Origin: Mustelus asterias
Taxonomy: Eukaryota
Direction of reading: 5' to 3'
DNA length: 64,000 nucleotides
NCBI RefSeq assembly: GCF_964213995.1
Contig: NW_027590418.1
Coordinates: 248,001-312,000 of the forward strand
Under the pieces are notes generated by a model, which was given only the letters and a program-made list of their open reading frames with translations, was not told the origin of the DNA and did no database searches. Numbering within the stretch: the stretch's first letter is position 1; each line of letters opens with the position of its first letter. Below are positions 2,409 through 41,501 of the stretch, in pieces. A program made the position numbers and the translations under genes.

Positions 2409-2716
2409 CCAACTTGGTGGCGATCATCATCCTATCCCGTGGACGGTGCGGACTCTCCCAGTGCATCACTTACGACCTGGTGGCGATAGCGGTGACTGAT
2501 TTCCTTGTCATGGTTACCACTGTTATCCTCAACCGGATCGGTGGCGTTTATTTCAGGTACAGTGTCCTATCTACCGCCCCCGGATGAGCTGTCAGCACTG
2601 TGCTGGTGTCTGCAACTCGGGATGGTTCAGTCTGGCTGACAGTGGCTTTCACCTTCGACCGTTATGTGGTGATCTGCTGTCAGGAACTAAAGGCCAGATG
2701 CTGCACTGAGAAAACT
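2409..2716 (+). pseudogene. GPR139/GPR142-like GPCR pseudogene, truncated exon 2 (TM1 to just past TM3)
   Basis: Acceptor ttccag then NLVAIIILSRGRCGLSQCI..AVTDFLV..; in-frame TGA at 2585 where the paralog has Cys; continues SVWLTVAFTFDRYVVICCQELKARCCTEK then breaks. Paralog of the gene at 33164-34841. Confidence 0.9.
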
Positions 2717-3020
2717 TTCCATCCCTTTATCTTTATTTCTTAGCCTGAAGATTCCTGTGTTGCAGCGTTTGCTTCCCTCACGGGATCTCCATCCAAATCC
2801 TCAGTAATGTTCAATCCGTGTACAGTTCTATTTACAATCGCAACCCGAGGAAATCTACCCGTCAGAAGGAAAAGTTCAGCGTAAACAGGTCAAGCGCGTG
2901 GTAATAAGATTAAGGTTCTTGAGAAGTCGTCACAAACTGGTATAAAAATAAATAACATTTAACATGAGCGAGTTAATCCGATCAAATAAAACCACAGACA
3001 TCTGAGGCCTCTGGGTTTGT
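2717..3020. repeat. Diverged duplicate of 28815-29100
   Basis: Shared blocks GAAGATT.CTGTGTTGC, CCCTCACGGGATC, TTTACAATCGCAACC, CCGATCAAATAAAACC. Confidence 0.75.
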
Positions 3021-3525
3021 ACTTATAAACGTTAATAAGATTAAGTATACTCTTTCACTATTGTCGTTAATTTACTCTGACTAAAATGATTGAATTCTGA
3101 CAGACGCACCGATAGATATCGTAATTAATACTATCCTGATGGCAACGGAAACATGGTCTATTGCAATATGAAGACAGGCTCTGGTGTCATATAAAGAGCT
3201 GATCTCCGGTTGGAAGGAAAGAGAGTTAAACCGAGAAAGAGACAGAATGACTGAGAATGTGACAGAGAGCAAGAGGGTGAGAAAGACGCACTCAGCCTGG
3301 GCTACAATTTGATTGGAGAAAGCCAGCCGCACTTCGTCGTCAACTAACAGTAATTGGTCCAAAGCTAACATCATCTCAGGCAGACTAACCAATCGCAGCA
3401 CTGAGAAACGCCCCCCAGTTCCCCAATAATTGCAGTTGCCTCTGATCTGAGTTGACTCTGTGATATAAACTAGAAGCAGCAACATCGTTTAAACAGTGTG
3501 GCTGCTTACTGTCCAATCAGGAACC

Positions 3526-3961
3526 ATGTGTTCCCTGTGTGCTTTACTGATAATAATGGTCATGCTGCCCGGTGAGTCTGAGCTCAAATCCTCAGTGTGT
3601 GTTTCATGGGTTATATTCACTCAGATTTCTCACACATTCTATATGTTGTTACAGGAACCAATGGCCAAGATTCAGTTTCCCAGGACCGGCCCGAATTCAC
3701 GGTCCAGGAAGGGCAGACGGTAATATTGAACTGCAACTACACAACACAATACACTGGCGAGACTCTCTTCTGGTACATTCAACATCCCGGGGACGCTCCG
3801 AGATATTTACTGAAGAAATACGGCAAGGGACAGGGGGAAAAGTCTCCAGATTTCCCTGACCGGTTTTCGGCTGAATTGGACAAAGACAAGAGAACAGTTC
3901 CTTTAACAATCACCGGGGTCCATGTCTCTGACTCTGCCGTGTATCACTGTGCGCTGAGCCC
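3526..3961 (+). CDS. TRAV: V1: TCR alpha/delta-type V segment, family A (leader 3526-3571, V exon 3655-3961)
   Basis: Leader MCSLCALLIIMVMLP, GT-AG phase-1 intron, V exon DSVSQ..LNCNY..WYIQ..DSAVYHCALSP, followed by RSS. Confidence 0.93.
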
Positions 3962-4000
3962 CACACTGTTACAGAGACACAGTCAGCCCGTACAAAAACC
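3962..4000 (+). other. 23-RSS of V1
   Basis: CACACTG - 23 nt - ACAAAAACC. Confidence 0.95.
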
Positions 4001-4329
4001 GGCAAAGGCACTCTCACCTCCTCTCACTGAATCAGATCTGTGAGCTGGATTGTGGATTTGTAATTGAACCCAAATCATATAAAGACCAGCTTGGCTGGTC
4101 TTTAAGTCCCCTTGAAACACAAGGGGAATCAATTATATTTGCAAAAGTAAATCGAGAAACAATATTTCCAACATATTATTGATCACGCATTTATCATACA
4201 TAACTTTAAAATGAGGGCAAACCTCATTTTAAAATCATGCCTTTATTGGTGAAGTTAAACTTTAACCACTTTTATAAATGACAGTTACTGCAGTAAAGCA
4301 GTGTCCTGTTTTTTGGACAATTGATTTGT

Positions 4330-4425
4330 TCACACGTGACCCGGAAGAGAAGCAGCTTCGGATCAACAACCACATCCTGATACCGGAAGCACGGAGTCTG
4401 ATTCCAGCCAATCAGATTGCAGAAA
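4330..4425 (+). promoter_or_regulatory. V2 promoter: E-box, ETS and CCAAT motifs
   Basis: CACGTG, CCGGAAG twice and CCAATCAG 120-220 bp upstream of the ATG; partly conserved in the V11 promoter. Confidence 0.5.
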
Positions 4426-4546
4426 ACCCAAGTGTCTGAAACTTTATCTGGTGCAGATGTTGAAGACGTTGATTCAATCCATGCTCTTCTGCTGTGAGCT
4501 GTGCTCCGTATTCTTACTGACATTGTTATTATATCACACGGTGCAA

Positions 4547-4956
4547 ATGAAACTGTTCCTTATCATTCTGGTGGTGTTAACTTGTAAGCGCAGGATATTT
4601 ATTTGTGGAGCTATTTGTTTATAATAATTTTGCTCCAGTGTCTCACTGTATGAATGTTTTTTTATAGATCGGTGTCGCTCGGACCAAGTTTCACAAACTC
4701 CCACAGCGAGAACAGTCCAGAGCGGGGATTCGGTGCTGATAAACTGCAGTTATGAGATGTCCAGCATTTATGGAATGTATTGGTACAGACAAAAACCCGG
4801 TCAGAGACTGGAGTGGATAATAAGCAGATCATCGAATGGCAAAGAGAGAAAAGACCGGTTCGAATTGGAACTTTCCACTGCGGGCAAACGGGGCCAGTTG
4901 GTTATTGAAAACACGGAGAGCGCGGATGCCGCTCTGTATTACTGTGCGATACAGCC
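4547..4956 (+). CDS. TRAV: V2: TCR alpha/delta-type V segment, family B (leader 4547-4583, V exon 4668-4956)
   Basis: Leader MKLFLIILVVLT; V exon DQVSQTP..INCSY..WYRQKPGQRLEWII..DAALYYCAIQP. Confidence 0.93.
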
Positions 4957-4995
4957 CACACTGAGAGGAAAGACGCTCGTCACTGTACAAAAACC
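4957..4995 (+). other. 23-RSS of V2
   Basis: CACACTG - 23 nt - ACAAAAACC. Confidence 0.95.
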
Positions 4996-5269
4996 TCACG
5001 CCTGTTTTCAGTTGCTGCAGCAATCCTACAAATAGCAGACTGCAGGCAATAGCTGCCAGAACTAGAGCAGGAAATGGAGCAGGTGAGCGGGGTTACCCGG
5101 GGCTTTGCAATTCCTGACAGCGACTTTCCTTTTCTCAGACATATTGAGAGTCATGATGTAACTAATCCGATTGAAGGAACAGTCGCTCAGTGAGTGTGGG
5201 CTTTATGGTGAGGAAATCATCCGCATTCTTTAATTTAAACATGATACTACACTGTCTGGAATCAGACAT

Positions 5270-5680
5270 TTGGTCTCTGCACAAATACAGAAAGACCTGG
5301 ACAATATTCAGGTTTGGACTGATAAGTGGAAGCAACGTTCAGGTCACACAGGTTCCAGGCAATGACCGTCTCCAAAAGAAGAGGATCTGACGAACTTTCC
5401 TTGATATTCAATGGCATTACCATCGCGGAATCCTCCCCTCTGCTCCCCCCCTTCCTCTCCCCCACCCCCAACAACATCCTGGGAGTTGACCGAAAGCTGA
5501 ACTGGACCGAAGAATATGAATACAGTGGCTACCGGAGCAGATCAAAGGTTAGGAATCCTGTGGCGAGTAACTCGCCTCGTGACTCCCCAAAGCCTGTCCA
5601 CCATCTACAAGATACAAGTCAGGGGTGTGAATTGAATTCTCCAGACTTACCCACTTGTCTGCCTCCCTTGGCCCTGGTGT
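5270..5680 (+). mobile_element. Decayed LINE (CR1/L2-like) fragment
   Basis: Degenerate RT-tail-like sequence (GACCTGGACAATATTCAGG..CCAGGCAATGACC..CTGAACTGGACC); recognised by eye only. Confidence 0.5.
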
Positions 5681-6605
5681 GACCACCTGCTGATAGCTCC
5701 TGTCTGTCACCTCCTCATTTTCCCTAACCGGACGATGATCCCGGAGCTGCACTTCCAGTTCTCTAACACGGTCCCTTAGGAACCGCAGCTCGACACACCC
5801 ATCACAGGTTCACAGGTTGTGAAACTTTCAATGTGCGGATAATGAGCAAAGTGCAAATTTGTCGATAGGGCAGTTTCCAGTGCCCGGATTTTAGGAGATG
5901 TTTCAGGAAATTCAGCCGTTTAAATATCTCGTAAATATGAGCGTTTATTTTAGTCATTTGTGAGACTTAGGCGTCACGGGCTCTCGTTGGAGGGCAGTTG
6001 AGAGTCAACCACATTGCGGTGGCTCTGGAGTCACATGTCGGCCAGACAAGGTAAGGGCGGCAGATTTCCTTCCCTAAAGTACATCAGTGAACCAGATGGG
6101 TGTTTCCGACAATCTACAATGGTTTCATGGTTTCAGTAGATTCTAAATTGTTATTGAATTCAAGTTTCACCACCTGCCGTGCAGGAATTCGGACCGGGGT
6201 CCCCAGAATATTAACTGAGTTTCTGGGTTAATAATCTCACGATGATGCCACTAGGCCATCCCCTCTTTATTCATGATATTACCTGATTTTTAAACTGTCT
6301 ATCACACTTTCCAATCTCTTCCATTTCTATTTCAACAGTTTATTCATTTTCTGACCACTTCTCCTATGATAACTGAACTTTCCTATGTTCTGTTTTCCTC
6401 TCACTCAGTCGAGTTTACATGTTCCCTCGTTCCTCTTCTCCATCTGTTTTCAACTATCTTCATTTTAACGGGATTTCAATAACTAGATTGTATGTTTTAT
6501 TTTGTGTTGCGCTCATTTCCTTTCTTTACGGATTTTAAAAAATAATCCCATCACTCTCTCTGCCGCTCCTGCAGACACAGCAGAGTGGCTCTCACTGTCG
6601 ATGCA

Positions 6606-6644
6606 GGTTTTTGCATGGGCTCTCCCTGTGTTTGTCACACTGTG
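6606..6644 (-). other. 23-RSS of V3
   Basis: CACAGTG - 23 nt - GCAAAAACC on the minus strand. Confidence 0.95.
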
Positions 6645-6977
6645 GCTCACAGCACAGAGATAGGTGGCAGTGTCAGTAACTCCGGCGTCTCTCACAGTCA
6701 GGGCACTGAATTTGTAGCCTCCGCCGATTGAGGCTGTGATCCCCTCGTGTAGATCGGTTTCTCTTGTGGCCATCACCAGGTACTGGGGTGGCTGATTCGG
6801 GGACTGTCTGTACCAATGTAGGTTGCTAAATGTAGTGATCGTGGTGCAGTTCATGGATACGGTTCCCCCTTCACTAACAACCTTCCGCCGAGGAAGCTGC
6901 ATCACCTCATCTGCTCCAGTCACCCCAGTGCAGGTCAGAGTGAAACACAGCAAAGAGAGTCTGTAAATTCGGAGCAT
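6645..6977 (-). CDS. TRAV: V3: TCR alpha/delta-type V segment, family C, with an apparently intronless leader
   Basis: Continuous ORF MLRIYRLSLLCFTLTCTGVTG-ADEVMQ..MNCT..WYRQ..DTATYLCAVS, then RSS. Confidence 0.88.
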
Positions 6978-7673
6978 TTTTCAGATCATATGAAATTTCT
7001 GCTGAAGTAATTGTCCAGGGAGTTCAGATTAGAACCAGGACCTGGGTTTAATATTCGGATGAATTTACAAGGAGTCAAACACCTGCTTCGTGTCCAACTG
7101 GGGCGTCTCTCTGTCGAACTGATGAAAGAAGCTGAGACTCGGGTTTTATCCGCCCACATTCACTGGCATCGATTCTACTGGAATCGGAGATGAAGAATTG
7201 AAGCCGGAATAAATAAACCCCATCAGTGACCCCATGTTTCCGGTTACAAATCTCTTCCCACGTGTCTAACTGGGGAACCATTCGCCCTATCAGAACACTG
7301 AGTGAACCCAGCTCGGGGTGAATCCATTCACTGGCAGACAGTTCACCAGCTGCCAACCCCACAGCACCCCCGCGGACACAGGGAAATGCAGTGAGAGCAT
7401 CCCGAGACACGGCAGCAAAATATACAGGGTGAAGTTTGGAAAGGGTGTCTTCAAATATCCAACTCCCCTTTTACAGAGCAGACAACAACGATGCTGCTAC
7501 TCAGCATCTGGATTGTGCGGGGAACCTTCCTGACAGGTACTTATGGACCAAACGCATTTCATATTTACTTTAATTTTACAAACTTGTTTTTGAACTGAAT
7601 CTTACGGATTCAGTCGGTCTGCTCTGTTTCCGTTCGAACATGTTTTTCCGATCTGGGTCATGGAGATTCTGTT

Positions 7674-7781
7674 ACCGAAAGCTTATGGTATTTGCTACCA
7701 AATAAACCTGTTGGACTTTAACCTGGTGTTGTGAGACTTCTTACTGTGCTTACCCCAGTCCAACGCCGGCATCTCCACATC
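7674..7781 (+). mobile_element. Penelope-like element terminal fragment
   Basis: CGAAAGCT..CCAAATAAACCTGTTGGACTTTAACCTGGTGTTGTGAGACTTC; same family as 12888-13200. Confidence 0.65.
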
Positions 7782-10260
7782 ACTGCTTCAGTTATACAGG
7801 GCGTTGCTGAGACTGCATCTTGAACACTGGGTGCAGCTTTGTCTCCTATTTAAGAAATGATACAAATGCATTGAAAGTGGTTCAGAGGAGGTTTAATAGA
7901 TTGCTTCCCAATTTTTTCCGATTTTCCTTGCCTTCACCTCTGACAAAGAGTAATCCTGACTCAAAATGTTGCCTCCATTCTCTCTCTACAGATGCTGTCA
8001 GACTTGCTGAGATTGTCCAGCATTTTCTGTTTTTGTTTCAGATTCCAACAACAGCAGAATTTTGCCTTTATACCAATTCTTGTTGGATAAGGGAATCAAA
8101 AATATCGGGTGTAGAACGGGAATGTGGAAATCTACACAAATAGATCAGCCATGATGTAAATAAATGGGGGAGCAGACTCAAAGGGCCAAATGGCCGACTT
8201 CTGCTCCGATGTCGAATGTTGGTCACAAATTCCTGAGAATTGTGAACCAAGGCTGGAAGATTCGCCTTGCTTGTGTTAGTGGGAAAATGTCCAGGAGAAC
8301 CATCACTGTGAAGGACAGTTCTGGGATTAAAGGTTGCCAGACTGGAAAAGGAAAACAATGGAAATAAACCCTTGGGGAGGAAAGAATCACTTTGGGCTGG
8401 TTTTTGGAGAAGGAGTGTCAACATTCCAAGGCAAAATAAAATGTATCCATTGAGTGGATATTTAATGGTGTTAAGAGTAAAAGGGCAAAGTTTAATTTTA
8501 CAGTTTCAGGGCTATGTTCCCTATAAGAAAGTGTTTAATCATTGTTGCCTCCAGTTTGTTGGAATAAACATCAGAAAACTTGAAGTTTTGTCATGTGATT
8601 CTTTAATTTGTTTACTGGGTTCAGAATTCATTTTTAAAAATTGTTGATCGTCAGAGATGCTAACAGTTCATTTAAAGCCACACGTTTCGACTTCCCATTT
8701 GAGCCTGTGGCACCTTTCTGTCTCTCTATTGCTCGTGTTAATGACAGCCAGGCGACGGAGCTGAGGGCTGAATTTAGCTGAGAATAATGGGGCCTGCGCC
8801 CCAGTTGGGAAACTGCCATGGGCGACGCACTAATAGAGAGACAGGAAGGTGCTGGAGGACTGACTGGGAAATGGGCCTCCAACCAATTATATCGGTCACT
8901 CAGAACTAAAGAGAAACCTGTCTCTTTAAATACAGATACAGGGAAGAGGCTGCAATGAAATCTGTCCCTTTTAACCTGCACAAAAGCAGGAGGCTGAGAT
9001 TGCCAGGCTGCAGGAGGAGTCCATTCAGCCCATCATGTTCTGCTATCTCTTTGAAAGGACTCTCTGATTCATCCAACTGCTCTGTTCTTTCCCCACAGCC
9101 CTGCAAATTCTTTCCTTTCAAGTCTTTACCCTTTGGAACGATTCTATTGAATCTGCTTTCAGGCAGATCAGAACAACTCACTGCGTCAAAAAATAAAATA
9201 AAATCTCATCTCCCCCTCTGGCTCCTTTGTCAATTACCTTAGAGGGACTCACTTTCTGTTAAAGAGCCTGCCAACCCCTCTCACCCACTTTCCCGAAAGT
9301 GCATCAATCTCATCAGGAAAAGTCCAGAAAAATCAAATATTTTTACTGATAAAAGTTTATTAATGAAACAGAACATGATTAAAACAAACAGAAAAAGACT
9401 TGAGGATCAAAGACAACCAGAGTAAAAGGATGTTCACAATGTTCTGGACACAAATGGTTTCTCTCTATCTGTTCCCTGACCTCTTTGTGGTAAAGGCAGA
9501 ATTCTCTGGACAGTAAATTTAAAAAGAAGTTTGTCGAATGAAAAAGGTTTACTGAACACAGTGGCACAGTGGTTACTGCTGCCTGACAGTGCCATTTTGC
9601 AATGTTTTATTGGAGAGTTTTTTTTTGTGAATAAAGTATATTTTTGAAAGAAAAAAAAACGTGTCGCAGTGGTGTTTTTAGCCCTATAGCTGGAGACCTG
9701 GCTTTCAGTGAGCAGAAATATCCCAAGCTGAGATATAATCAGTTTGCTCATTCGGAAAATCACTACATTGTTGGGGGCCAGGGGTGGGAATGAAGTCGCT
9801 GGTCTGATTATTGAAACAGAGAAACACTGGGTTGCGAATTGTGTCAGAAAACATTTGACAGACATTCAAAATGAGAATGAACATTGATGGTAACTTGTTC
9901 TCAGGGATTGTTTTAAATAGCACAATGACAACCTTGCGAAATGTATATGCCAATATAAGCTGTCCCTTAGGCAGCAAAATACTCTAATCAAATAGACCCT
10001 TTGATCAAAGAGACCTTGAAAAGGAGAGTGAAGATGGGGAAAGTGCTGCACAATAATTCACACAGGCAAGAAAATGTTATCAAAGGTTGAAGCGTGAGTT
10101 AAGGAACTGTGAATGTATTTTTAGTATTGTTGCAAGTTAAAAATTCAACTGTGGCTCAGCTACTCGTGTTGAGTGTTGTGTTTTGTTTTGATATTTTGTT
10201 TATGACCCTGTGACTATCACTGTCGAGACAAAATAATTATTTCTGTTTATCAGTGTGGGA

Positions 10261-10274: not shown

Positions 10275-10299
10275 TCACTAACCGGAACTCCCAGTCTGG

Positions 10300-10337
10300 G
10301 GTTTTTGTGCGGGGTTCGCTACATCTGTCCCAGTGTG
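10300..10337 (-). other. RSS of psiV4 (22-nt spacer)
   Basis: CACACTG - 22 nt - ACAAAAACC. Confidence 0.9.
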
Positions 10338-10558
10338 GGCTTCATGGCACAGAAATACACGGCGTTGTCGGACAGAACACCTCTGGCGATATTTAAAGGA
10401 ACAGTATTGTTTCCTTTGTGTAAAGCAGCCGAGAATCTATCTGAGAAATCCGGAGACTTATCGGTATTGCCCGAGCTATATATCATCATCAAATATCTCG
10501 GAGCTTGCCCGGGATACTGGATGTACCAGAACATAGTTTCAGAAGTAGCTGTTGAGTA
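10338..10558 (-). pseudogene. psiV4: 5'-truncated copy of V10 (no leader, FR1 or first Cys)
   Basis: YSTATSETMFWYIQ..DNAVYFCAMKP nearly identical to V10; homology ends at a deletion junction at 10557-10558. Confidence 0.92.
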
Positions 10559-10781
10559 CCGGATGCTCTGCCGCATGCGCACTCTCCTCCCCCGCACTAT
10601 CAATGCTGAAGCTCCCTCACTGATTCACTTTGTGATCACAAGTCCCAGAGACCCGGCTCTCACCGCCACTCTGTGACTGGTTTGGGGCTCGGTTTGATAT
10701 CCAATAGCATTGCTTTCCCAGGAGCTTCTCTCAGCCTGGGATCTGCTGACAGCTGTTTCACACAAGCCGATAGGATCCAAC

Positions 10782-11284
10782 ATGTTCCTGAGTTTCACTT
10801 TGGTGATTATTTTCCTGGATTTCTTACTGTTCCCTCAGTGTAAGTGTGGTCACTATTTCTGACAGCAATATTTCACACCTCAGCAATGTTATGTTCTGTT
10901 AAATTGTACTCAGCTTTATTGTATTATCTCGAATTGTGAATACAATGGTACTTTATTGTGCTACATTATAGTACGATATGTTCTTACTGCAAATGTACAT
11001 ATTCTTCCCAGATGCCGCTGGCAGTGAAGAGCTATCACAGTCTCCGGAGTCAGTGGTTGTTACCGAGGGAGCCACTGCATCGTTGAACTGTTCAACCACA
11101 GTAACTGGACAGCTCCTTCAATGGTACAGACAAAATCCAGACAGAACCGTGCAGCACCTGGTGAGCGGTACCAGCGATCAGGGCAGGATCACGGCTCAGT
11201 ACAGTTTCTCAGAGAAACGCAGCGTTCTGAATGTTAGTGAAGCTCGGCTGACAGACACCGCCACCTATTTCTGTGCGATGGAGG
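10782..11284 (+). CDS. TRAV: V5: TCR alpha/delta-type V segment, family D (leader 10782-10839, V exon 11012-11284)
   Basis: Leader MFLSFTLVIIFLDFLLFPQ; V exon EELSQSP..LNCS..WYRQ..DTATYFCAME. Confidence 0.92.
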
Positions 11285-11323
11285 CACAGTCTAGCAAAGA
11301 CCGTACAGGGCCGTACAAAAACC
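11285..11323 (+). other. 23-RSS of V5
   Basis: CACAGTC - 23 nt - ACAAAAACC. Confidence 0.93.
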
Positions 11324-12169
11324 TGCCGCGATCACCCGGAACGTGTACAGCCTGTTTAGAGAGCTGGACTTTTAATCACTCTCTCCCTTGGATACGCGCC
11401 ACAGTCACCCGATCAGTGAGACCTGTTGCCGATTTGGGTTTACTCTTTAAAATCAAAAAAGAACGGATAAAATACATTTAAATTGGGTTATTTTCTGTGG
11501 AAATGTCATCCGGGCAGCGCATGTTCCATGGTGCTTCCAAATTGGAATAATCGTGGTATTCCGTGAGTCAATATTAAAAGGATCCTTGTCTATTTCCTGT
11601 GATAAATCCCATTCCAGTCTGTGACACATTCTAAGTTCGGCTGCAGGGACGAGTGACAGACATTGAGTTTCCCAGACTCCATCGGAGTTGAAAGCTCTGG
11701 AAGACCAGTCAGGAGTGCTAAGGGACAGTCACTCCATATCTGAAAGCTTTCTGTGCCTATCTAGACAGAGCAGTATTCCGGGTAAGTTATGGGATATTTA
11801 ATGAAGTGGTAGAGGGCCAGACATTGAGAGAGGTCCCAAGGTCTCTCAGACCGGTTCGCTGTTCATTTGAACGAACAAAGGCAGCAATGCACCTGTTCGA
11901 TAAATAAACGACCAAGTCATCCCATTTTCACAGAAAAGTGGACAGGGATCGATAAATGTTATTCATTGCATTGCTATTTGTTACCATCTGGAGTAGAGCG
12001 CCGCAAACTATAAAGGAAGAGCATTCAATAGTAAATTTCAAAAAGGCATTGTCAGACCTTGAGAACGGAAAACAACTCGTGGAATGGGGGGTGAGAAGAG
12101 CAATTGGGAAAGGTCTTTCATTGAGCCACAGGGAGAGTCAATTGTTTCTGATCCATTCGCGCCCGTCCG

Positions 12170-12430
12170 ACACTATTTTTTCTCAGTCACTTGAGCAGTG
12201 AGCAGATGCAGGTTGTCACAGACTGCTGCAGGTTTCAGCTGTCGCTGTTTCCTCTCCATCACCTGCGACTGCCGCTGAGAACCCCGCACTTCCATCAGCT
12301 TTGAGTCTGCGGTGTCCCCGGTCACAGCTTCCGGTTGCTGCTATTCATTCCAACACCATTGTGCTTTTCTAGACAGTGCTGCCGCTGGTCGATTTCTGTC
12401 ATTGGTTAGATCAGAAGTTCAGTGCTTCAG
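12170..12430 (+). promoter_or_regulatory. Orphan family-F V promoter remnant (copy at ~22105-22365)
   Basis: Homologous to the V12 upstream region (TTCTCAGTCACTTG..AGTGAGCAG; TGCCGCTG..CATTGGTT.GATCAG); cut by a SINE tail, no V follows. Confidence 0.6.
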
Positions 12431-12887
12431 TCTATTCATTAGTGTAGCAAGTAAGCTTATATTAACACTGCAGTGAAGTTACTGTGGAAATCTCCTCGTC
12501 GCCACACTCCGGCGCCTGTTCGGGTACACTGAGGGAGAGTTTAGCATGGCTGATTAGCGACTGATTCAGGAAGTGGTGCGTGGTACTGTCGGATAATACA
12601 GCCTTTTTAACGAGGTGAGTCTGTGTTGAAATGATTATTGAGCAATCCAAGTATTCATAACTACAGCAGACTTTGACACATCCAATGTTTGGTTCTAGGA
12701 ATTGCTGGCGCAATCTCAGTTAACGGCCCTGGAAGATGATATAACAGTAATTTTTGGCTACATGATCTCTACATCTGAGAACTTTCATTACCGCTGCTCT
12801 GAAGTAGATTTGGAGGTTAACTGCATGCATTGCGCCATAAAGATATGTCTCATCATTTCGCAATCTGTTCCTCTGGTGACCTAGACA

Positions 12888-13205
12888 AGATGTGGAGATT
12901 CCGGCGTTGGACTGGGGTAAACACAGTAAGAAGTCTCACAACACCAGGTTAAAGTCCAACAGGTTTATTTGGTAGCAAAAACCACGAGCTTTCGGAGCGC
13001 TGCCCCTTCGTCAGGTGAGTGGGAGTTCTGATCACAAACAGGGCACAAAGACACAAACTCAATTTACATGAATAATGATTGGAATGTGAGTCTTTACAGC
13101 TAATCAAGTCTTAAAGGTACAGACAATGTGAGTGGAGGGAGCATTAAGCACAGGTTAAACAGATGTGTATTGTCTCCAGACAGGACAGCTAGTGAGATTT
13201 TGCAC
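12888..13205 (-). mobile_element. Penelope-like element end with hammerhead ribozyme core (copy at 22824-23140)
   Basis: Minus strand CACCTGACGAAGGGGCAGCGCTCCGAAAGCTC followed by AATAAACCTGTTGG. Confidence 0.7.
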
Positions 13206-24195: not shown

Positions 24196-25080
24196 GGACT
24201 CAGTGCGCAGTAATAAACCCCGGAGTCTGCCAGCTCTGTTTTAGACACATTCAGCGGGACTGTGCGGGTTGTATCATTGAGTTCTGCTGAAAAACGGTCC
24301 CCTTTGGATCTCCCTGCGTTCCCGGTGTATTTATTTGTCTGCAGCAGATATTCCATGGATCCACTGGGATACTGACGGTACCAGTAAAGATAAAAGCTGT
24401 TGCTTGTAGTTGTGTAATTACAGAGCAACCGAACATCATCTCCTTCAGTGACGGTGACTGCAGCCGCTGTCTGTGAAACAGAATCTCCTCGGGAATGTCC
24501 TGTAAGAATCCAAAGAAATATTAAATTAAACATTGTGACTTTACTCCGATTCCCCCAGAATTTGCCTGTTATCGACAAAAATAATCTGAGAGAGAAATCA
24601 GAGAGCAAAACAGAAACATATTTCTCACAGTTCAGTGGCTGGATTGGGAAGTTTTTGTGGCGATGAAATAAAACTTCCACCATAAACATTCTGCTCTTTC
24701 TAACGAGATCAGTTCCTCGACTTCAGTCCCTGTAACTGCAAACTGCTCACGGTCTGTTTGAAGTGTGATGTTTGCCAAAGTGGTTCACTGGTATCAGAGG
24801 AGCTGGAATCTGAGCCCAACTCATTCTCTATCAATCCCTGGGGGAAATGTGCCCAATCCCAACAGTGTTCAGTGATGAGACCAGCGAAATCCAGATAACT
24901 TTTCGATGTTGAGATCAATCCATTCCCTCATCACCGACCCCCTCCCCCTCGCATTGAAGGAACTGCCTGACAGAATATAGTGTGTGGTAATGATGTGTAA
25001 CACAGACTTGAGCAACTTGTGAAATTACCGGTTAACAGAGCTGCCGCTGTGAGGAATAAATACCGAGTAACAGGAGACAT
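24196..25080 (-). CDS. TRAV: V9: TCR alpha/delta-type V segment, family E (leader 25029-25080, V exon 24196-24499)
   Basis: Leader MSPVTRYLFLTAAALLT with GT donor; V exon ends DSGVYYCALSP. Confidence 0.92.
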
Positions 25081-25340
25081 GTTTGCAGAGAGCTCGGGGC
25101 GGATCTGACCAGAGCGGGTGGGAGATGTCATTGTTTCAGTCAAGAGTTGAAAGAGGCGGAGTCACACCCGGGTCCCTGTGGATTGGTTCACTGCTGGAAA
25201 CATCAGATGACATCCAATCGGATTCAAGCTCCTTTGTTCTTCAGTTCAACCAATGGTCTCACAGCTCCTTTATCTCCAATTCACCCCATAGGCGGAGAGA
25301 CGGAAGGAACAAAGTGAAGTTGGCCATCCCACGACAGGGG

Positions 25341-25570
25341 ATTATTTTCCTCTTCAACAGTTATTCCATGAACCGACCGGTCCCCTGAGTGTTGATGGGT
25401 CTGTTCTGACATGGAGAATGACAATGTTCATCCCTACAGCAACATGTCAAGCAGTTTGTTATCAATCGTGTTTGGGATAGCAGCTACGGTGCGGGGGAGG
25501 ATGAATTTTTAGTTGAAACATGTACTTCACAAGAAGTGATAGAATAATGAATAGTCTGTGATATTTCCAT
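25341..25570 (-). pseudogene. Decayed family-F V pseudogene (paralog of 15404-15633)
   Basis: Remnant ..HGITVEEENN versus V7 PGIKVKEEND; leader and CCAAT promoter homology. Confidence 0.7.
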
Positions 25571-26552
25571 ACGATCTTCCCTCAATTTGTAACTTTGCCG
25601 CGTGTGAAATCCTCTTTCAGAGAGAAAGTATAGCTTGCCACCCCATTGGACTGCTGATCCAATCGGTGCCAAACAGGGAAAAGCAGCAAAGGTCAATATC
25701 TACAATAAAATCTCTAATAAAACAACACAGATGAGGCAGGTCAGAGTGAGAACAACACAGGAAAGCTGTGGGTGTGGCTGCCATAGGCAGTGTGGTGAGA
25801 GGTAGAATTTATCTGCAAGGAATTGAACTCAATAACACTATCGCATTGGAAATCATATAAATTTGCCTGTCTGTAGGAGCGGCAGCTGAATGTTCATTCC
25901 ATAGCGCGGACCAGCAGTCTCGCACCAGGAAGGTCAGGGTTAGTAAATGATCCAATACAAAGCGGAATCTTCATCAGTGATGGAGATGGACAGTGGGACC
26001 GAATAGCTGAGTAGCTGGATTGGAGAGGTTCTCAGTGTGCTTGTGAGGAAAATCACTACATTGTTAGGGCCAGGGGTGGGAATGAAGTAGCTGGTCTGAT
26101 TATTGTAACAGAGGAACACTGAGTTGCGAATTGTGTCAGAAAACATTTGACAGACATTCAAAATGAGAATGAACATTGATGGCAACTTGTTCTCAGTGAT
26201 TGTTTTAAATAGCACAATGACAACCTTGCGAAATGTATATGCCAATATAAGCTGTCCCTTAGGCAGCAAAATACTCTCATCATATAGACCCTTTGGTCAA
26301 AGAGACCTTGAAAAGGAGAGTGAAGATGGGGAAAGTGCTGCACAATAATTCACACAGGCAAGAAAATGTCATCAAAGGTTGAAGCGTGAGTTAAGGAACT
26401 GTAAATGTATTTTTAGTATAGTTGCAAGTTAAAAATTCAACTGTGGCTCAGCCGTTCGTGTTGAGTGTTGTGTTTTGTTTTGATATTTTGTTTATGACCC
26501 TGTGACTATCACTGTCGAGACAAAATAATTATTTCTGTTTATCAGTGTGGGA

Positions 26553-26566
26553 GCGCCCTCTGCTGA
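26553..26566 (-). promoter_or_regulatory. RSS-proximal CTCF-like site (V10)
   Basis: TCAGCAGAGGGCGC, 25 bp past the nonamer. Confidence 0.65.
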
Positions 26567-26591
26567 TCACTAACCGGAACTCCCAGTCTGG

Positions 26592-26629
26592 GGTTTTTGT
26601 GCGGGGTTCGCTACATCTGTACCAGTGTG
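26592..26629 (-). other. RSS of V10 (22-nt spacer)
   Basis: CACACTG - 22 nt - ACAAAAACC. Confidence 0.9.
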
Positions 26630-27172
26630 GGCTTCATGGCACAGAAATACACGGCGTTGTCGGACAGAACAGCTCTGGCGATATTTAAAGGAACAGTATT
26701 GTTTCCTTTGTGTAAAGCAGCCGAGAATCTATCTGAGAAATCCGGAGACTTATCGGTATTGCCCGAGCTATATATCTTCATCAAATATCTCAGAGATTGC
26801 CCGGGATACTGGATGTACCAGAACATAGTTTCAGAAGTAGCTGTTGAGTATTTACAGTCCAGTGTCATGTTCTGTCCTTCCAGAACCGATAATTCAGATC
26901 GATCTTGAAACACTGAATCTTCAGCCTTTGCCCCTGTAACAAAACACAGAAGTTATTCAATATCTGGGAGGGAAGAGAGCCCATGGGACAGACACTGATC
27001 ATTTAAACATTGACTCAAAAAAAGAAAATGCTCGAAATTTTCAGTAGATCTGACAACATCTGTGAGAGGCGAACAGAGATAATGTTTCAAGTCAGGATGA
27101 CACTTTGTCAGAGTTTATTGACTCACCGGGCAGCAAGACCATTATTATCAGCAAACAAAGTAAGGAGCACAT
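26630..27172 (-). CDS. TRAV: V10: TCR alpha/delta-type V segment, family A (leader 27127-27172, V exon 26630-26933)
   Basis: Leader MCSLLCLLIIMVLLP; V exon EDSVFQD..LDCKY..WYIQYP..DNAVYFCAMKP. Confidence 0.93.
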
Positions 27173-28024
27173 GGTGTCTGGTTTCGGGTTCGGCAGAAAT
27201 GAAGCAGTATTTGAAATGTGTTGACATTTCTGTTCTGATATTCAAGCGGAAATTCACATCAGCGGAAACGTAATTTACTCAGAAATTATGGGGCGTTTCC
27301 CAGCGACAGGATTGGCCGCTTTCTCAGGATTGATGATCGTCGGGCATCAATCAGCGTTCGCTCGACTAATAAGTTCTGAGTTTCTCTTTCTCCCTGTCTT
27401 TCTCAGATTCCCCTGCTCTCTCTTCGTTTGGAGCCTGTCTATCTCGCTCTGTCATTCCGCCTCTGTTTGTCTAACCCCCATTGCTCTGCTTCTGACCGTC
27501 TCTGTCTTCGCACTGGCTCTACGCTCTTATCTTTCTCCCCTTCTCCCTAGAGTTCAGAGTTCAGACAATCCGATTTCCCTCACTCTCCTATTTCAATGAA
27601 TCCACTAAGTTACTCATTCTTTTGGTGCAACAAATGTAGAAAACGTTAATAACCAGAAGTTGCGAGGTAAATTATGATGGAAATATTTAAATGTAAATAA
27701 CTAAAGAATATAGGAAATGAATGTGAATCCAGGGTCATATTTACATCTTGTGTTGTCATTTTAGGAAAGGCATCTTATCGGAATCTTGAGGGCTTCATAT
27801 TGTTTAGAATGAGTTTTATAACCACTATTAATTGAATAAAGCGAATCGCCAGCAATTAAAATAACGATGTTATTATCTCTCATGTATACGTTCAACTGTG
27901 TTCAATTGCATTGGAATAGTAAAAGGATGAACAAGAATAATGCAACATAATCACCAGTAGTAACGACCTTCTGTAATTTGAGAATTCGATGATTTTGCAG
28001 GAAATGACCAGTTACCTCAGATTG

Positions 28025-28040
28025 CCGCCAGATGGCGGTG
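28025..28040 (+). promoter_or_regulatory. CTCF-binding-motif-like site
   Basis: CCGCCAGATGGCGGTG. Confidence 0.55.
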
Positions 28041-28284
28041 CCTCACCATGTTTGTGTGTTTACTGCAGCGGGTCCGGGAAGCTTTACTCGGCGGTTCTGC
28101 TGCTGGTCTGGTTTCCTCGGGCGTCCAGAAGCTCTCGGAAATAATCCTGTCGGTATCATGTACTATGTTATATTATGTTGTGTTAAGGAATGAAGGTAAA
28201 GGAATGGAAAGACAGTGGGTGAACTCGAGGCCGAGGCCGTGATAGAAGTCAAGGCACAGATTAGGAGGAACAGATGGAGAAATC

Positions 28285-28465
28285 AGAGAAACCCTACAGT
28301 GCAGAAGGAGGCCATTCGGCCCATCGAGTCTGTACCGACCACAATCCCACCCAGGCTCTACCCCCATATCCCTACACATTTACCCGCTAATCCCTCTAAC
28401 CTACACATCTCAGGACACTAAGGGCATTTTTTAGCACGGCCAATCAACCTGACCCGCACATCTTT
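28285..28465 (-). mobile_element. HE1-like SINE 3' half
   Basis: AGAAGGAGGCCATTCGGCCCATCGAGTCTG.. tail sequence. Confidence 0.85.
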
Positions 28466-29099
28466 GTTCTCTCTTTATGCTTTCGTCTGTACTGTCTCCA
28501 TAAATCTGCAACTGCTCCCTTCACAGTTCCTTCACCGAACCTTCATCTATTTCCCTTCCTGTCTCCGTCTCTCCCTCATTTATCTTACTGTCTGTCCCTC
28601 TATTTATCTCCTTGCCTCTCGCACATTTCTCTCATTCCCTTTCCTCGTGTTTATATCCCTGTAACTCCATCTGTTCCTCCTAATCTGTGCCTTGACTTCT
28701 ATCACGGTCTCGAATTCACCCACTGTCTTTCCATTCGTCTAGTTGGACCAATGAGCGGCACAGGCTTGGAGGGCCGAAGGGCCTGTTTCCTGTGCTGTAC
28801 TGTTCTGTGTTCTTTGTTCTTTGTTTATCTTCATTCCTCAGCTTGAAGATTTCTGTGTTGCTGCATTTATTCCCCTCACGGGATCAACATCTAAATCCAC
28901 TGTTGTACAAATCGTGTATTGTTTTATTTACAATCGCAACCCCCTGAAATCTACCGTGGAGGATAAAGAGTTCAGCGTCACCAGGTCACGCACAATGAGA
29001 TTAGTGTTCTTGAGAAACCGTCACAAAAAATAAATAACATTCAATCTGAGCGTGTGAGGCCGATCAAATAAAACCGCAGACAGCTGAGGACTTTGGATC

Positions 29100-29330
29100 T
29101 GCATTCGATGGAGTTTAGAGAGATGAAGGGGGAATCTCATTGAAAAATACTTGGTTTGTTCTCACTGGATCGACGGAGGTTTGAAGGGAGACCTGATAGA
29201 AGTCTACAAGATTATGAGGGGCACGGACAGAGTGGATGGTCAGAAGCTTTTTCCCAGGGTGGAAGAGCCAATTACTAGGGGGCATAGGTTTAAGGTGTGA
29301 GGGGCGAGGTTTAAAGGAGATGTACGAGGC
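29100..29330 (+). mobile_element. CR1 fragment
   Basis: GGAGACCTGATAGAAGTCTACAAGATTATG..GGGCATAGGTTTAAGGTG. Confidence 0.85.
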
Positions 29331-29362
29331 AGGATTGCTGCAGCAACTGAAAACAGGCGTGA

Positions 29363-29401
29363 GGTTTTTGTACAGTGACTGGCGTCTTTCCTCTCAGTGT
29401 G
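29363..29401 (-). other. 23-RSS of V11
   Basis: CACACTG - 23 nt - ACAAAAACC. Confidence 0.95.
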
Positions 29402-29820
29402 GGCTGTATCGCACAGTAATACAGAGCGGCATCCGCGCTCTCCGTGTTTCCAATAACCAACTGGCCCCGTTTGCCCGCAGTGGAAAGTTCCAATTCGAAC
29501 CGGTCTTTTCTCTCTTTGCCATTCGAGAATCTTCTTATTATCCACTCGAGTCCCTGACCGGGTTTTTGTCTGTACCAATACATTCCATAAATGCTGGACA
29601 TATCATAACTGCAGTTTATCAGCACCGAATCCCCGCTCTGGACTGTTCTCGCTGTGGGAGTTTGTGAAACTTGGTCCGAACGACACCGATCTATGAAAAA
29701 ACATTCAGACAATGAGGCACTGGAGCAAAACGTTTTTAAATAAACAGTCTCTACAAGTGACCGAGTAAATTTCCTGCACTTACAAGTTAGTAGAATCAGA
29801 ATGAAAACGAACAGATCCAT
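29402..29820 (-). CDS. TRAV: V11: TCR alpha/delta-type V segment, family B (leader 29784-29820, V exon 29402-29690)
   Basis: Leader MDLFVFILILLT; V exon DQVSQTP..WYRQKPGQGLEWII..YYCAIQP; inverted paralog of V2. Confidence 0.93.
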
Positions 29821-30499
29821 TAATACAACAAAAATGTCAGAAGGGAACCGGAGCAGAACTCGCAGCAGAAAAGCACGGAGTGAATCAACAGCTTCAATCC
29901 GCCACTCATGGAGCACCAGATAAAGTTTCAGTTTTTTGCAGTCTGATTGGCTGGAATCAGACTCTGTTCTTCGGATGTCAGGATGTGGTTTGTTGATCCG
30001 CCGCCGCTTCTCTTTCGGGTCACTTATGAACAAGTCAGTTGTCAATAACCCAGCGCGCTTCTTTACTGCAGCTACTTTCATTGATAAAAGTGTTTAAAGT
30101 TTAACTGTTCATCAATGAAGGCATTGATTTCAAATTGAAATGATCAGTCATGCGAATTCTACTGAAGCTGCAATTCAAATATTCGTTTCAAATGTAACCA
30201 GGTCCTCCCGCCTCTCGGCTCTGGCTCCGTTTTCTCCAGGATTTCAACTGAAGCATCAACGATTTAGTTTGATGTCCCTCCCTCTTCAGGTGAAATCTTA
30301 ATTATATTATAATCATTCGTACCATGACAAGAGGAATATCCTGTTATCATCCCCAAACGTCCCATTTTATAATTTATACGCACGTGCTTCGCCAAACGGT
30401 GGCAACATTAAAATAGGGACAAGTGTCCAGATTTTTTTCACCTGCAAGAATCAAGATTGCTTTCAACAATTGCCGATTCTACATTCTACAAGAGTTTAT

Positions 30500-30842
30500 A
30501 GATCATAGAATCCCTACAGTACAGAACGAGGCCATTCGGCCCATCGAGTCTGCACCGACCACAATCCCACCCAGGCCCTACCCCCATATCCCTACATATT
30601 TTGCCCGCTAATCCCTCTAATCTACGCATCCCGGGACACTAAGGGGCAATTTTAACCTGGCCAATCAACCTATCCCGCACATCTTTGGACTGTGGGAGGA
30701 AACCGGAGCACCCGGAGGAAACCCACGCAGACACGAGGAGAATGTGCAAACTTCACACAGACAGTGACCCAAGCCAGGAATCGAACCCAGGTCCCTGGAG
30801 CTGTAAAGCAGCAGTGCTAACCACTGTGCTACCGTGCCGCCC
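30500..30842 (-). mobile_element. Full-length HE1-like V-SINE
   Basis: tRNA head, V-domain and CR1-like tail. Confidence 0.92.
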
Positions 30843-31339
30843 CACTTTTATACCACTTTCTGGCTTACCAGGAAAAACAGCAAGGACTATGTATAATTAG
30901 GTCCAATTTAAATATCTGGAAGATGTTGTCTGATATTTCTGCTTTGATTTGTAAACCAATAAATCTATGATTCTATGATTCTAAAACCGCAGACATCTTC
31001 GTTTAACGGTAACAAGGACTCTGTGAACAATCTTGGGTAAACGATTCGAAAGCGGGTAATGACTTTGGAATAAGGGCGGCGGCAATACACCAGAATAATG
31101 CCAGGGATGAGGAATTGCGATGCAGATGGACTATGCAAACTGCAATTCTTCTGGAGTTCTCTGCAAAGAGACAGGTCCGACCCATAGCGCGATGAACTGA
31201 ACCACGCGAAGGACAAGGAGGCGAGTTTGAAATACATCACAGCCCGAATTGGAATAGGGCTCTGTGCTCCTATAACAACCTGTCCTCCGTTCAAACCATT
31301 CCCTCGGAGCAGTCTGAGTTACAGCGGCAAAACTCTTAT

Positions 31340-31515
31340 AGAATAGAAACCCTACAGTGCAGAAGGAGGCCATTCGGCCCATCGAGTCTGCACCGACCAC
31401 AATCCCACCCAGGCCCTACCCCCACATATTTACCCGCTAATCCCTCTCACTTACGCATCTCAGGACTCTAAGGGGCAATTTTTAACCTGGCCAATCAACC
31501 TAACCCGCACATCTT
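31340..31515 (-). mobile_element. HE1-like SINE 3' half
   Basis: Same tail as the other copies. Confidence 0.85.
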
Positions 31516-32530
31516 CTTATGTACTCTGTTCACTTTTTTTCCATGTTATTGTCTGGAGTTGTGGATAGTAATGGCTGAGGCTCCAATAAATATCCTCAGC
31601 TATCAGGTACTGGCTTTCGAATTGAAGCCGATGTTTCTGCCTCAGAGGCACAGACGCGATCCACTGTGACACAGGAGTTCATCTCTTAATATCAAAGGAG
31701 GTAGAACAGAGACCGAACTGAGGTGCTCAACATCATGTGGTTTTGTTAAAGTAAATCGCATGTCACAGTTTCCGCCGGCAGAACTTTGGAAAACACAAGC
31801 GTCTACTTTAGGAGGGGAGAGGGCAATGGAAAGATTAGATTAATTGATTACTCTGCGATTTGTTAAACTTGGAAGGTGGTCATCGGATCCCGACAGTGCA
31901 AAAGGAGGCCATTCGGCCCATCAAGACTGCACCGACTCTTATCTAGGCCCTATCCCTGCGGTGTCGAAAGAGATGGCGGAAGAAGAGATAACAGTAAGTT
32001 TCAGAAGGGAATGGGAGATAAGTTGAAAGCAGAAAAGTGCAGTCACTGTGAGAGATGCGGGGTTTGAAAGCTGAATTGAAGAATTCTGTAATTCTGAATT
32101 CTCCACATCAATTCTGCATTCTGTCAGGCAAAGACACCATGGGCCGAGTGGCCTCATCTCCTGCATTGATACGCTATGTTTCTATTTTGTCCATGTCCCT
32201 GGCCCCGTTATGCCCCTCCCTCTCTATTTCTTCTCAGTCACTTGGACAGTGAGCAGGTGCAGAATGGTGACAGATTCCGGAGATGGAAGTCTCGCTATTT
32301 CTGTTCCGGGTGCAGCTGAATCTGCCGCACACTTCACTCAATATTTTGTCTCCTGCATCCCCGCCCACGACTTCCGTTTTCTGCTCTCACTCTGAACCTA
32401 TTGTGTGATTGGACGGATTGCTGCCGCTGCTCCATTCCTCTCATTGGTTGGATCAGCAGTGCAGTGGAACAGTGTCTTTCTGTCTCTGACAGGATTTCAC
32501 TCATTGCAGATTACAGACTCAGGAAGCATC

Positions 32531-33028
32531 ATGGTGAACTATCTCACTCCCATCCTCATCATTCTCTCACTTCTCAGTAAGCATTTTCTTCCCAGTAAAA
32601 CTACAAGCTCCTCCTGACTGCTGTAACCCAGATATTCTTGTTGATAAAACAATAGTGATGATGACAATTGTATCGTTTAATCTGAGGCTAACTCTGATTG
32701 TCATATTGCTGTTGTTTCTGTTAGAATGGAGCCACCAAGACGAAGTGGAACAATTGGATCCTGGAATAAAGGTTAAAGAGGAAAATGATGTCACACTAAC
32801 CTGCGCTTTGAAAACAAGCGATTCCAACCCTTATGTGTACTGGTACAGTCAGCAGCCCGGGAAAGCTCCGGTGTACATGTTTAAGCTTATTGGAGAGAAT
32901 GTGCAAAAGAATCCCGACCTCAATGATCGATTTTCTTCCAAATTTGATAAAAAGAACAAGACTAGTGAGCTGACAATCAGTAACACACTGATTTCCGACA
33001 GCGCCGTGTACTTCTGTGCCATGGAGCC
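32531..33028 (+). CDS. TRAV: V12: TCR alpha/delta-type V segment, family F (leader 32531-32576, V exon 32725-33028)
   Basis: Inverted paralog of V7; ends DSAVYFCAMEP. Confidence 0.92.
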
Positions 33029-33068
33029 CACACTGCTGCAGAGACATAGCCAATGCCGTGCAAAAACC
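33029..33068 (+). other. RSS of V12 (24-nt spacer)
   Basis: CACACTG - 24 nt - GCAAAAACC. Confidence 0.85.
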
Positions 33069-33114
33069 CCACACTGGCAGTTCCAGTTAGTGCCCAGCAG
33101 GGTGCGCGCTCTAA

Positions 33115-33120
33115 TTTATT
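33115..33120 (-). terminator. Putative polyadenylation signal of the GPCR gene
   Basis: AATAAA on the minus strand, ~45 nt after the stop codon. Confidence 0.55.
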
Positions 33121-33163
33121 AGCAAAACATCAGATAAATACATTGTCGTGATAGAATAGCTTA

Positions 33164-34841
33164 TTACTGTTTAATGAATTTCAAAATTCCAGTTACTGGA
33201 AACATCACCACATTTTTCAGATCCTCTCTGAACTGTGTCTGTGTCACTGCATAGATGCATGTGTTGGTGCAGCAACTCAGGAGTTGGAGCATAACTCCTA
33301 ATTCCTGAAGAAAATGTGGTAAACGCGACAGAAATAATTTAAACATGTACAGTCGGTCATATAAACAATAGAAGAGGAACACTGACCATAACAGGAGAAA
33401 ATTTCCCGATATTGCAAACAGTATGATGATAGATTTTCTTCTTTTCTCTATCACTGGGTCACTTGGACTTTCCCCATTCTTGTGGGTCCGAAGTCTCCTG
33501 CGGACTTTACTCAACACCACAATGTATTTAACGGTTAAAACGTTGAACAGCACAACCAACACAAAAGGAATAGTCGGGGTTAAAATATAGTGGAGACTTT
33601 CAGCTGCTGTCCATGCTGGTGAGGAGGCGACATCAAAATCTACAGAACAGAAATAGGGAGTATTGGAAAGCCAATAGCTATTCTCACACATAAAGTACCA
33701 GAAAGTGTTTTTTACAGTGAATAGCACAATCACTGTTCCTAGAACCACAGTTGCCGTTTCCTCAGTGCAGTATTTTATTTTCAGCTTCTGACAAGTCATG
33801 GCCACGAATCGATCAAAGGTAAAAGTGACAGTGAACCAGACAGAACAGTCAGTGACTGCGTAAAGCAGGACGGCATGGATATTGCACACTTTAACATGAT
33901 ACATGAAGACAAATTGATCTCTGAAACTGATGGGAATTTGCCTCAATACGAGGTCGATGATGACGACGAGTAGATCCGCCGCTGACATGGAAATTAGGTA
34001 ACGTGAGACACATTTGGAAAGTCCACACCTCCCTCGAGACAGGATAAGAATCGTCAATAAGTTCACTGCAGGGAAGTGAGAGACAATTAACTCATATTTC
34101 AGACTGAGAACAGGAGCAGTAATCTGGCAGGTTTCTGGGGAACAGCTGCAGGATTTTGTTTTACAGAGTCCAGCCTCAGAAAAACATGGATTCACCTGTT
34201 CTGCTGAGACTGGGTTCACAGTAAGAAAGCATCGCACTGAGGTATCAAGAAACTAAATTTACCAACAGAGCAGATCTCCAATTCCCTGCCTTCTCTTTAT
34301 TTGTATTTGGGAGACACAATGGTACCAATGGGTTTGGACGGAATGTTCCTGGTCTGGGTCACTCTGCTGTGGCTGTGCTGCAGACTGTGCATCTGAAGAT
34401 ATTGCATCAGTTGATTTGGAATTGGCTGTAAATCACAAAACTGGAAATTATATATTTTATTTTACTGAGGCAGGACCCTGTAGATATTAAGGCAGGAATA
34501 GTGGAAGTGGCCGGTGAAGGTGTGGTGGGAGTGGGGGGAGTGAGGAGAGGGGGTTGGTAGTGGGGAGGGGGGAGAGTGGGAAATAGAGAGCAACCACCAG
34601 GCAAGAGTAGGGAAAATGTCTGCTGGGAAGATAGAGAAATTTTCCAATTGCATTAGCACATATGCAACATGAAGTTTGCACATTATAAAATTATTAATTG
34701 GGTCTCATGGACAAGTGCAATCAACAGAGTGAAATTTAACTCACCAGCTACACCAACTGCAGCGAGGAGTGGGTAGTAAATCCTTTGGATATCGTGAAGT
34801 ACCCAAGCAACACGAAGCTCAAGTGGAATAATCCAGAACAT
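33164..34841 (-). CDS. GPR139/GPR142-like orphan class A GPCR, 2 exons (34745-34841, 33164-34065), 332 aa
   Basis: Exon 1 MFWIIPLELRVAWVLHDIQRIYYPLLAAVGVA with GTGAGT donor; exon 2 NLLTILILSRGRCGLSKC, AADLL, FTFDRF, SCCTNTCIY; seven hydrophobic segments, intact frame. Confidence 0.9.
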
Positions 34842-41497: not shown

Positions 41498-41501
41498 ACA
41501 A

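Follow-up and report, generated by a model that had tools for sequence, protein, structure and literature searches.

How do T-cell receptor (TCR) variable (V) genes come to lie on both DNA strands between genes for GPR139-like G-protein-coupled receptors (GPCRs), away from any joining (J) or constant (C) exon, and what could such genes be joined to? This question is raised by a stretch of 64,000 nucleotides of Mustelus asterias, hereafter the window, which spans positions 248001-312000 of contig NW_027590418.1 (C386; 362,736 bases) in an assembly of 3.68 Gb and 5313 contigs; other contigs and scaffolds of the same assembly are likewise given C-numbers (C71, C546, C232 and so forth). We propose that the window is probably a young mosaic in which TCR alpha/delta V genes have been copied by segmental duplication, that it likely lies within the antigen-receptor complex (AgRC), and that its GPR139-like genes are likely passengers of the duplicated units rather than boundaries of the V island.

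A scan of the window for recombination signal sequences (RSSs) revealed twelve V exons with an RSS, five on the forward and seven on the reverse strand, where shuffled sequences gave a mean of 0.02 signals and never more than 1 over 100 shuffles. All twelve RSSs were of the 23 class, with a spacer of 23 nucleotides in eight and of 22 or 24 nucleotides in two each, and all twelve exons matched the Pfam V-set model. Eleven genes (five forward, six reverse) were intact, with an open leader-plus-V model and both cysteines and the tryptophan in all 11 translations; the broken one is V4. The count, the strands and the RSS class were the same as in the initial annotation of this DNA.

The V genes belong to seven families (V1, V2/V11, V3, V4/V10, V5/V8, V6/V9 and V7/V12). 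On the forward strand, each made up of a leader, a V exon and an RSS, are V1 (3526-4000, RSS at 3962), V2 (4547-4995, RSS at 4957), V5 (10782-11323, RSS at 11285), V8 (20720-21261, RSS at 21223; 92% amino acid (aa) identity to V5) and V12 (32531-33068, 24-spacer RSS at 33029). Built in the same way on the reverse strand are V6 (14224-15141, RSS at 14262), V7 (18214-18751, 24-spacer RSS at 18253), V9 (24157-25080, RSS at 24195; 88% aa identity to V6), V10 (26592-27172, 22-spacer RSS at 26629) and V11 (29363-29820, RSS at 29401). Also on the reverse strand, V3 (6606-6977, RSS at 6644) has its leader and V in a single exon (6645-6977) without a leader intron, and V4 (10300-10556, 22-spacer RSS at 10337) is a pseudogene without a leader and the start of framework region 1, its 5′ end having been replaced at 10556/10557. 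V2 and V11 (95% aa identity) and V7 and V12 (98%) are pairs of inverted duplicates, and the segment 10557-16066 recurs at 20495-26032.

TG at positions 8 and 9 after the cysteine codon (T8G9), with the RSS at position 15, is given as a signature of TRA V ends in the portion of PMC10322711 available to us. TG occupied these positions in 10 of the 12 V exons (V1 scored by eye) and the RSS lay at position 15 in 9 of the 12; matching the same signature, 129 of the 136 J-alpha segments on C546 begin with TG. V1, the one V compared, had its best single-domain matches in the Protein Data Bank among TCR alpha chains, and a database search with V1 for full-length shark chains found none. Judging from their sequences, the V genes of the window are of shark TRA/TRD type, as had been annotated: the V-set matches, the RSSs, the T8G9 ends and the near-identity to V genes on C546 all point this way. 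Searches with V1 and V12 gave at least 150 matches each, spread over dozens of small contigs and over C71 between 4.5 and 19.4 Mb.

Comparison with the rest of the assembly resolved the window into blocks with different closest relatives. Positions 1-2715 resembled C315 and C391 (98%), 2715-7675 and 4112-10145 resembled C232 (97.7% and 99.2%), 10557-20442 resembled C546 (98.5%), 26032-35776 again C232 (97.8%; C1506 also matches in this part), 35026-36759 C1126 (99.8%) and 36776-42342 C546 in pieces (96-98%; C815 is also similar). The block 10557-20442 is a 9.9-kb duplication unit that contains V5, V6 and V7, and its relatives are two tandem V units at C546:41.6-61.2 kb, approximately 75 kb upstream of J-alpha and C-alpha.

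The junctions between these blocks are blunt or carry microhomology or filler. At 2715/2716, a GPCR pseudogene is joined to the upstream flank of V1 with 1 nt of microhomology (1-2 nt at 2715 and 10557 together), and the same junction is found in C815 (99.1%). The initial annotation had the GPCR break leading into sequence duplicated elsewhere in the V block; this applies to 2726-3014, which has a 76% copy in the window, but the sequence after 2716 is mainly normal V1 upstream flank, present in 12 other places. On C315, the parts joined at 2715 are separated by 7 kb and oppositely oriented, and a local inversion or template switch within the V region would therefore explain this junction. V12 and the right-hand GPCR gene meet tail to tail over 10 nt of filler (33110-33119), an arrangement common to C386, C232 and C1506, and this tight fit is a derived junction. 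The filler also makes an AATAAA on the GPCR strand about 45 nt past the GPCR stop, and the C231 copy is without AATAAA there. The right junction, a short templated duplication, leads into a flank (36760-42342) that is 96-98% like C546:19.9-27.9 kb and C815. RAG was also considered as the origin of the junctions in the window (2715, 10557, 33110-33119 and 36760), and this was rejected as none of them lies at a heptamer or RSS.

The Pfam DUF1968 profile found no C-alpha; C-alpha was located via the pattern of J segments. Two alpha blocks were found, one at C71:18366453-18431907 (18.37-18.43 Mb) with 35 J segments, C-alpha and no V match in the 200 kb read, and the other at C546:138259-242101 with 136 J segments and C-alpha. 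The two C-alpha exons are 73-74% identical in aa sequence, and no delta constant was found upstream of J-alpha at either block. Arrays of C2H2 zinc fingers lie upstream of both (C546:68-94 kb and C71:18.30-18.36 Mb). The second block bears most directly on the window, with V genes of the V5-V8 and V10 types present on C546 at 88-100% aa identity; the V1, V2/V11 and V3 families were not found on C546. The closest relatives of V5-V8 are thus proximal to J, and the description of the window as the distal end of a TRA/TRD locus was not borne out. Ten stop-free V genes lie at 32-63 kb of C546, seven on the forward strand in line with J-C and three, including the V5 family, inverted on the reverse strand. 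The V genes directly upstream of J-alpha are therefore themselves of mixed orientation. The joining of a 23-RSS V to a 12-RSS partner is governed by the 12/23 rule, and with inverted V genes this rule calls for inversional joining. The expectation that part of the V genes must join by inversion is hence supported by three of the ten V genes beside J-alpha on C546.

The arrangement could have arisen and could be used as follows. Duplication, inversion and end-joining repair would flip V blocks, so that V genes come to lie on both strands. A 23-RSS V would be joined by RAG in thymocytes to a 12-RSS J-alpha or diversity segment of delta type (D-delta), with deletion when the V is in line with J-C and with inversion when it is opposite. 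If the island is oriented as its twin on C546, the six reverse-strand V genes would join by deletion and the five forward-strand genes by inversion. The likeliest partner would be the J-alpha/C-alpha block of C546; several delta D-J-C clusters are further candidates.

The right-hand GPCR (33164-34841, reverse strand) is an intact GPR139-like class A gene of two exons (exon 1, 34841-34745; exon 2, 34065-33164) encoding 332 aa. Its ATG is at 34841 and its stop ends at 33164. The distance from there to the V12 nonamer is 95 bp, in agreement with the roughly 95 bp of the initial annotation. The only Pfam match at E<=0.01 was 7tm_1, and no olfactory-receptor model matched. Shark records labelled 'probable GPR139' were 60-70% identical, and the closest solved structure was human GPR139 (PDB 9M42 and 7VUG), as a weak match (E 3e-7). 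The shark family is multi-copy, with 131 scored matches of 5948 candidates in the genome, and with the weak match to human GPR139 this differs from an orthologue, which would be single-copy and match the human protein strongly. GPR139 is normally a single-copy gene. Relatives at E<=1e-40 numbered 1064 among 2451 candidates, and matches lay on more than ten large scaffolds.

This gene is part of a module of 2.7-3.2 kb (33120-36303) that has duplicates genome-wide with a common left border. Thirteen close copies of the gene (95-98% aa identity) were found: seven of 11 have a V gene within about 5 kb and four of the 11 have none within about 10 kb, and the remaining two have a V1-type match about 4 kb away, so that nine of 13 are near a V gene. 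Older paralogues of the GPCR on C119 likewise flank V genes. On C71, 11 of the 19 GPCR matches listed are no more than 30 kb from a listed V match, versus 1.4 under a circular-shift null, and 8 of these 11 matches are four copies of one unit. The shared duplicated modules and the proximity on C71 support the earlier suggestion that the V genes co-expand with a non-olfactory GPCR family. Co-duplication of GPCR and V genes is real; a functional link is far less probable. The view that GPCR genes bracket the V cluster did not hold. The finding named beforehand as speaking against it was that V arrays continue on both sides, and this is what is seen around the right-type GPCR in the paralogous regions of C232, C1506, C315 and C1126. 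Among the recent GPCR copies, 26 nonsynonymous and 5 synonymous variant codons were counted for 693:204 sites, and these copies appear to vary as expected without purifying selection.

The left-hand GPCR (2409-2715, forward strand) comes from a GPR139-like pseudogene and covers the 5′ part of its exon 2, which is cut off by the rearrangement junction. The break reported at 2716 was confirmed at 2715/2716, but an in-frame TGA at 2585-2587 had been overlooked. Three of three longer copies are already broken, with the stop shared by two of them, and therefore the junction at 2715 did not kill the gene. Two of these copies lie 2-7 kb from V genes. In all five copies read, the left GPCR is dead.

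Several observations weigh against the interpretation of the window as a young mosaic within the AgRC that carries GPCR passengers. C386 is unplaced, without J or C in the 362,000 bases read, in agreement with the annotated lack of D, J and C nearby. It has satellite-rich flanks, mostly consisting of 57-96% tandem repeat, with four 20-kb bins lower at 16-27%. The island lies 250 kb from one end of the contig and 78 kb from the other, and one further V gene is present at 79.6 kb, 170 kb upstream of the island. With respect to the passengers, the ratio of nonsynonymous to synonymous rates (dN/dS) between the GPCR and an 89% copy on C71 was 0.30, which points to purifying selection over a longer span, and exon 2 is open in 13 of 14 close copies; it is thus possible that the GPCR functions. 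The proximity of GPCR and V genes on C71 would also be expected under a functional link.

The lack of J and C on C386 and its repeat-rich flanks would suit an orphon, that is, a recent duplicate of a V block left in satellite-rich DNA at too great a distance from J-C, or without linkage to it, which never rearranges and is intact through youth. It would also fit that, on C71, stops are frequent in older members of the V1 and V12 families. We nevertheless consider an orphon unlikely: the right flank of the window matches DNA that immediately precedes the V genes of C546, the left flank is found ahead of V arrays on C315 and C391, and no target-site duplication or retroposition mark was found at the junctions read. 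Moreover, V genes dispersed over about 9 Mb are tabulated in the great white shark (PMC12227049, table S1). The specific version of the initial annotation, in which a transposed orphon disrupted a GPCR, conflicts with the longer copies of the left GPCR, which are already broken, and with the presence of both flanks beside V arrays elsewhere. Far less probable is an artefact of assembly, with an island that is chimeric or a haplotig of the C546/C232 region that escaped purging. This might be suggested by the near-identical V genes on dozens of unplaced contigs, and when short-read contigs (four runs of one study) were aligned to 2100-4200, none bridged 2715 among the pieces listed, a loose end there being the untruncated GPCR. 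However, the blocks differ by 0.2-4% from their best matches and change partners at defined junctions, the V12-GPCR junction is present in three contigs, and the 2715 junction recurs in C815 between other neighbours, with flanks that are 93-98% alike and reordered. The left junction is therefore probably not an assembly chimera. C815 as an allelic haplotig of the island was rejected on account of the same flanks.

Only slightly more credible than an artefact, and still very improbable, is that the GPCR-V association is functional, for instance through shared chromatin opening or insulation in lymphocytes, and has been selected as the mammalian TRAV-olfactory neighbourhood might be. The proximity on C71 above the shift null (among the matches listed), the nine of 13 close copies near V genes and the older paralogues on C119 would agree with this idea. 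Yet C546, which bears J-C, has no GPCR of the GPR139-like kind in 249 kb, the family extends over more than ten large scaffolds, the left GPCR is dead in every copy read, and the geometry varies between copies. The mosaic of V duplicates with GPCR passengers thus remains the reading that we prefer.

Beyond the window, C exons that are probably of delta type, to judge by the anatomy of their clusters, were found in 19 places (82-100% aa identity); as pairs at least 99% alike may be haplotigs, this number is a ceiling for the distinct loci detected. They include three on C71 (7.14, 11.04 and 12.27 Mb), C119:572692 and C436:226387, and no match to a named shark C-delta was found. All nine copies examined have two to four J segments of their own and either a D segment with 12/23 RSSs or a joined V-D; their C and transmembrane exons are open, and the C exons are 89.6-99.4% alike. 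According to the coordinates, 15 of the 19 places have a co-oriented V of the supporting type 13-56 kb upstream. Germline V-D joins are present in three clusters, one of them from the V6/V9 family. C119 forms a compact minicluster of a new antigen receptor (NAR) V-D-J followed by a supporting V joined to D-delta, J and C, and C436:210106-214090 is likewise composed of NAR V-D-J, joined V-D, J and C.

The join of the V6/V9 family is at C71:11023470-11023820, where a paralogue of the V7-V6 block stops precisely where the V6 coding sequence does and is followed by a trimmed D-delta with its 3′ RSS. The join has trimming and one added base, and the V is now a pseudogene with a stop and a frameshift. 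From the loss of the RSS pair together with the trimming, we infer a RAG-type coding joint that has been fixed in the germline. If so, the V6/V9 family has been a RAG substrate and has been joined to D-delta. At C138:218166-218444, about 440 bp upstream of D-delta, lies a V exon that has a 23-RSS and an end like that of IgH V exons, and we take it to be possibly a TAILV-type gene.

Whether all this amounts to an alpha/delta translocon broken up into an Ig-like multi-cluster system is, in our judgement, evenly balanced. Such a system would comprise two J-alpha/C-alpha blocks (35 and 136 J), approximately 10-19 functional delta miniclusters, some self-contained NAR-TCR units whose V-D is already joined in the germline and which resemble mammalian TCR mu by convergence, and mobile V islands of mixed strand that spread with GPR139-like passengers and supply V genes to more than one J-C target, by deletion or by inversion, while RAG acting in the germline contributes to remodelling the complex. 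If real and expressed, it would blur the divide between cluster (Ig) and translocon (TCR) organisation in the oldest jawed lineage, parallel TCR mu and raise the question of allelic exclusion. Shark TCR genes are described as translocons in the parts of PMC6795676 and PMC12227049 available to us. Most of the interest lies in the multi-cluster alpha/delta organisation around the island, as opposed to the usual one alpha and one delta, while the island's private V alleles on both strands allow TCR joins by inversion and by deletion to be counted against each other in a shark.

For the most part, the island as such is a component that one would expect in the shark AgRC. In the accessible part of the elasmobranch AgRC study (Flajnik et al. 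2025, PMC12227049), TCR alpha/delta V exons are dispersed among immunoglobulin heavy chain (IgH) clusters, and its table S1 places V exons on both strands in great white shark, epaulette shark and stingray. C71 likewise has V genes, TCR J-C and many C1-set exons in IgH-like spacing. The AgRC table gives catshark and stingray one delta constant beside TRA, whereas M. asterias has none at either J-alpha block and 19 elsewhere. In the text of that study, as far as accessible, GPCR, GPR and orientation had no match, nor did G-protein or receptor 139 in its supplements. Our literature search found no report of GPR139-like genes co-duplicating with shark TCR V genes, of a multi-copy shark C-delta or of a second J-alpha/C-alpha; Deiss 2019, Ott 2021 and Criscitiello 2006 may already report several delta constants. 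Provisionally, then, the dispersal and mixed strands of shark TRA/TRD V genes are already known (PMC12227049), whereas the GPCR co-duplication, the second alpha block and the 19 delta C exons are not in print as far as we searched.

Partial parallels exist in other vertebrates, here taken from the available portions of the cited papers. In teleost TRA/TRD (PMC8559430), V genes lie opposite to J-C, which implies inversion, and salmon has a direct-orientation V block; teleost V genes form large single-orientation blocks, whereas the strand of the island alternates every one to three genes via small inverted duplications. In mammals (PMC2275272), a large birth-and-death GPCR family, that of the olfactory receptors, is likewise mixed with TRA V genes. 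There, one or two TRAV genes are involved at a conserved 5′ edge, in contrast to a non-olfactory class A family copied inside V units at many sites, and we would regard this likeness as analogy rather than homology. For clustered TCR genes with joins in the germline, TCR mu of marsupials and monotremes is a precedent (PMC7615758). The C119 and C436 units of NAR V-D-J, second V, J and C resemble the V1-D-J1-V2-J2-C clusters of platypus TCR mu (PMC7615758), but they appear to be of the delta lineage and their germline join is V-D only, not V-D-J. Like M. asterias, the newt (PMC12698447) has two TRA loci and a TRD not nested in TRA; here, one TRA block lies with three delta clusters on C71, and delta has multiplied far more.

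Among the remaining features of the window, the terminal part of a 56-bp satellite (1-609) is also found 5′ of the left GPCR in C315, C391 and C815. Most of C386, including window positions 47-64 kb, is made up of a compound satellite that combines GA/GT repeats with a 69-bp unit and is common to C815. A tRNA search of C386 found none. Three candidate features were rejected: a V-like frame at 47091 without a Pfam match or RSS, a 12-RSS-like match at 49544 that sits in CA repeats and is due to chance, and a 'V4' match at 20494-20562 that is duplicated non-V upstream DNA. CRE motifs are used in TCR V promoters, and repeated CRE-like motifs were observed upstream of V8 at about 20430-20500. Finally, the 9.9-kb unit contains a reverse-transcriptase fragment of a long interspersed nuclear element (LINE) on the reverse strand (16631-17902, a 423-aa frame), and a second long LINE reverse-transcriptase frame of 730 aa spans 55417-57609.

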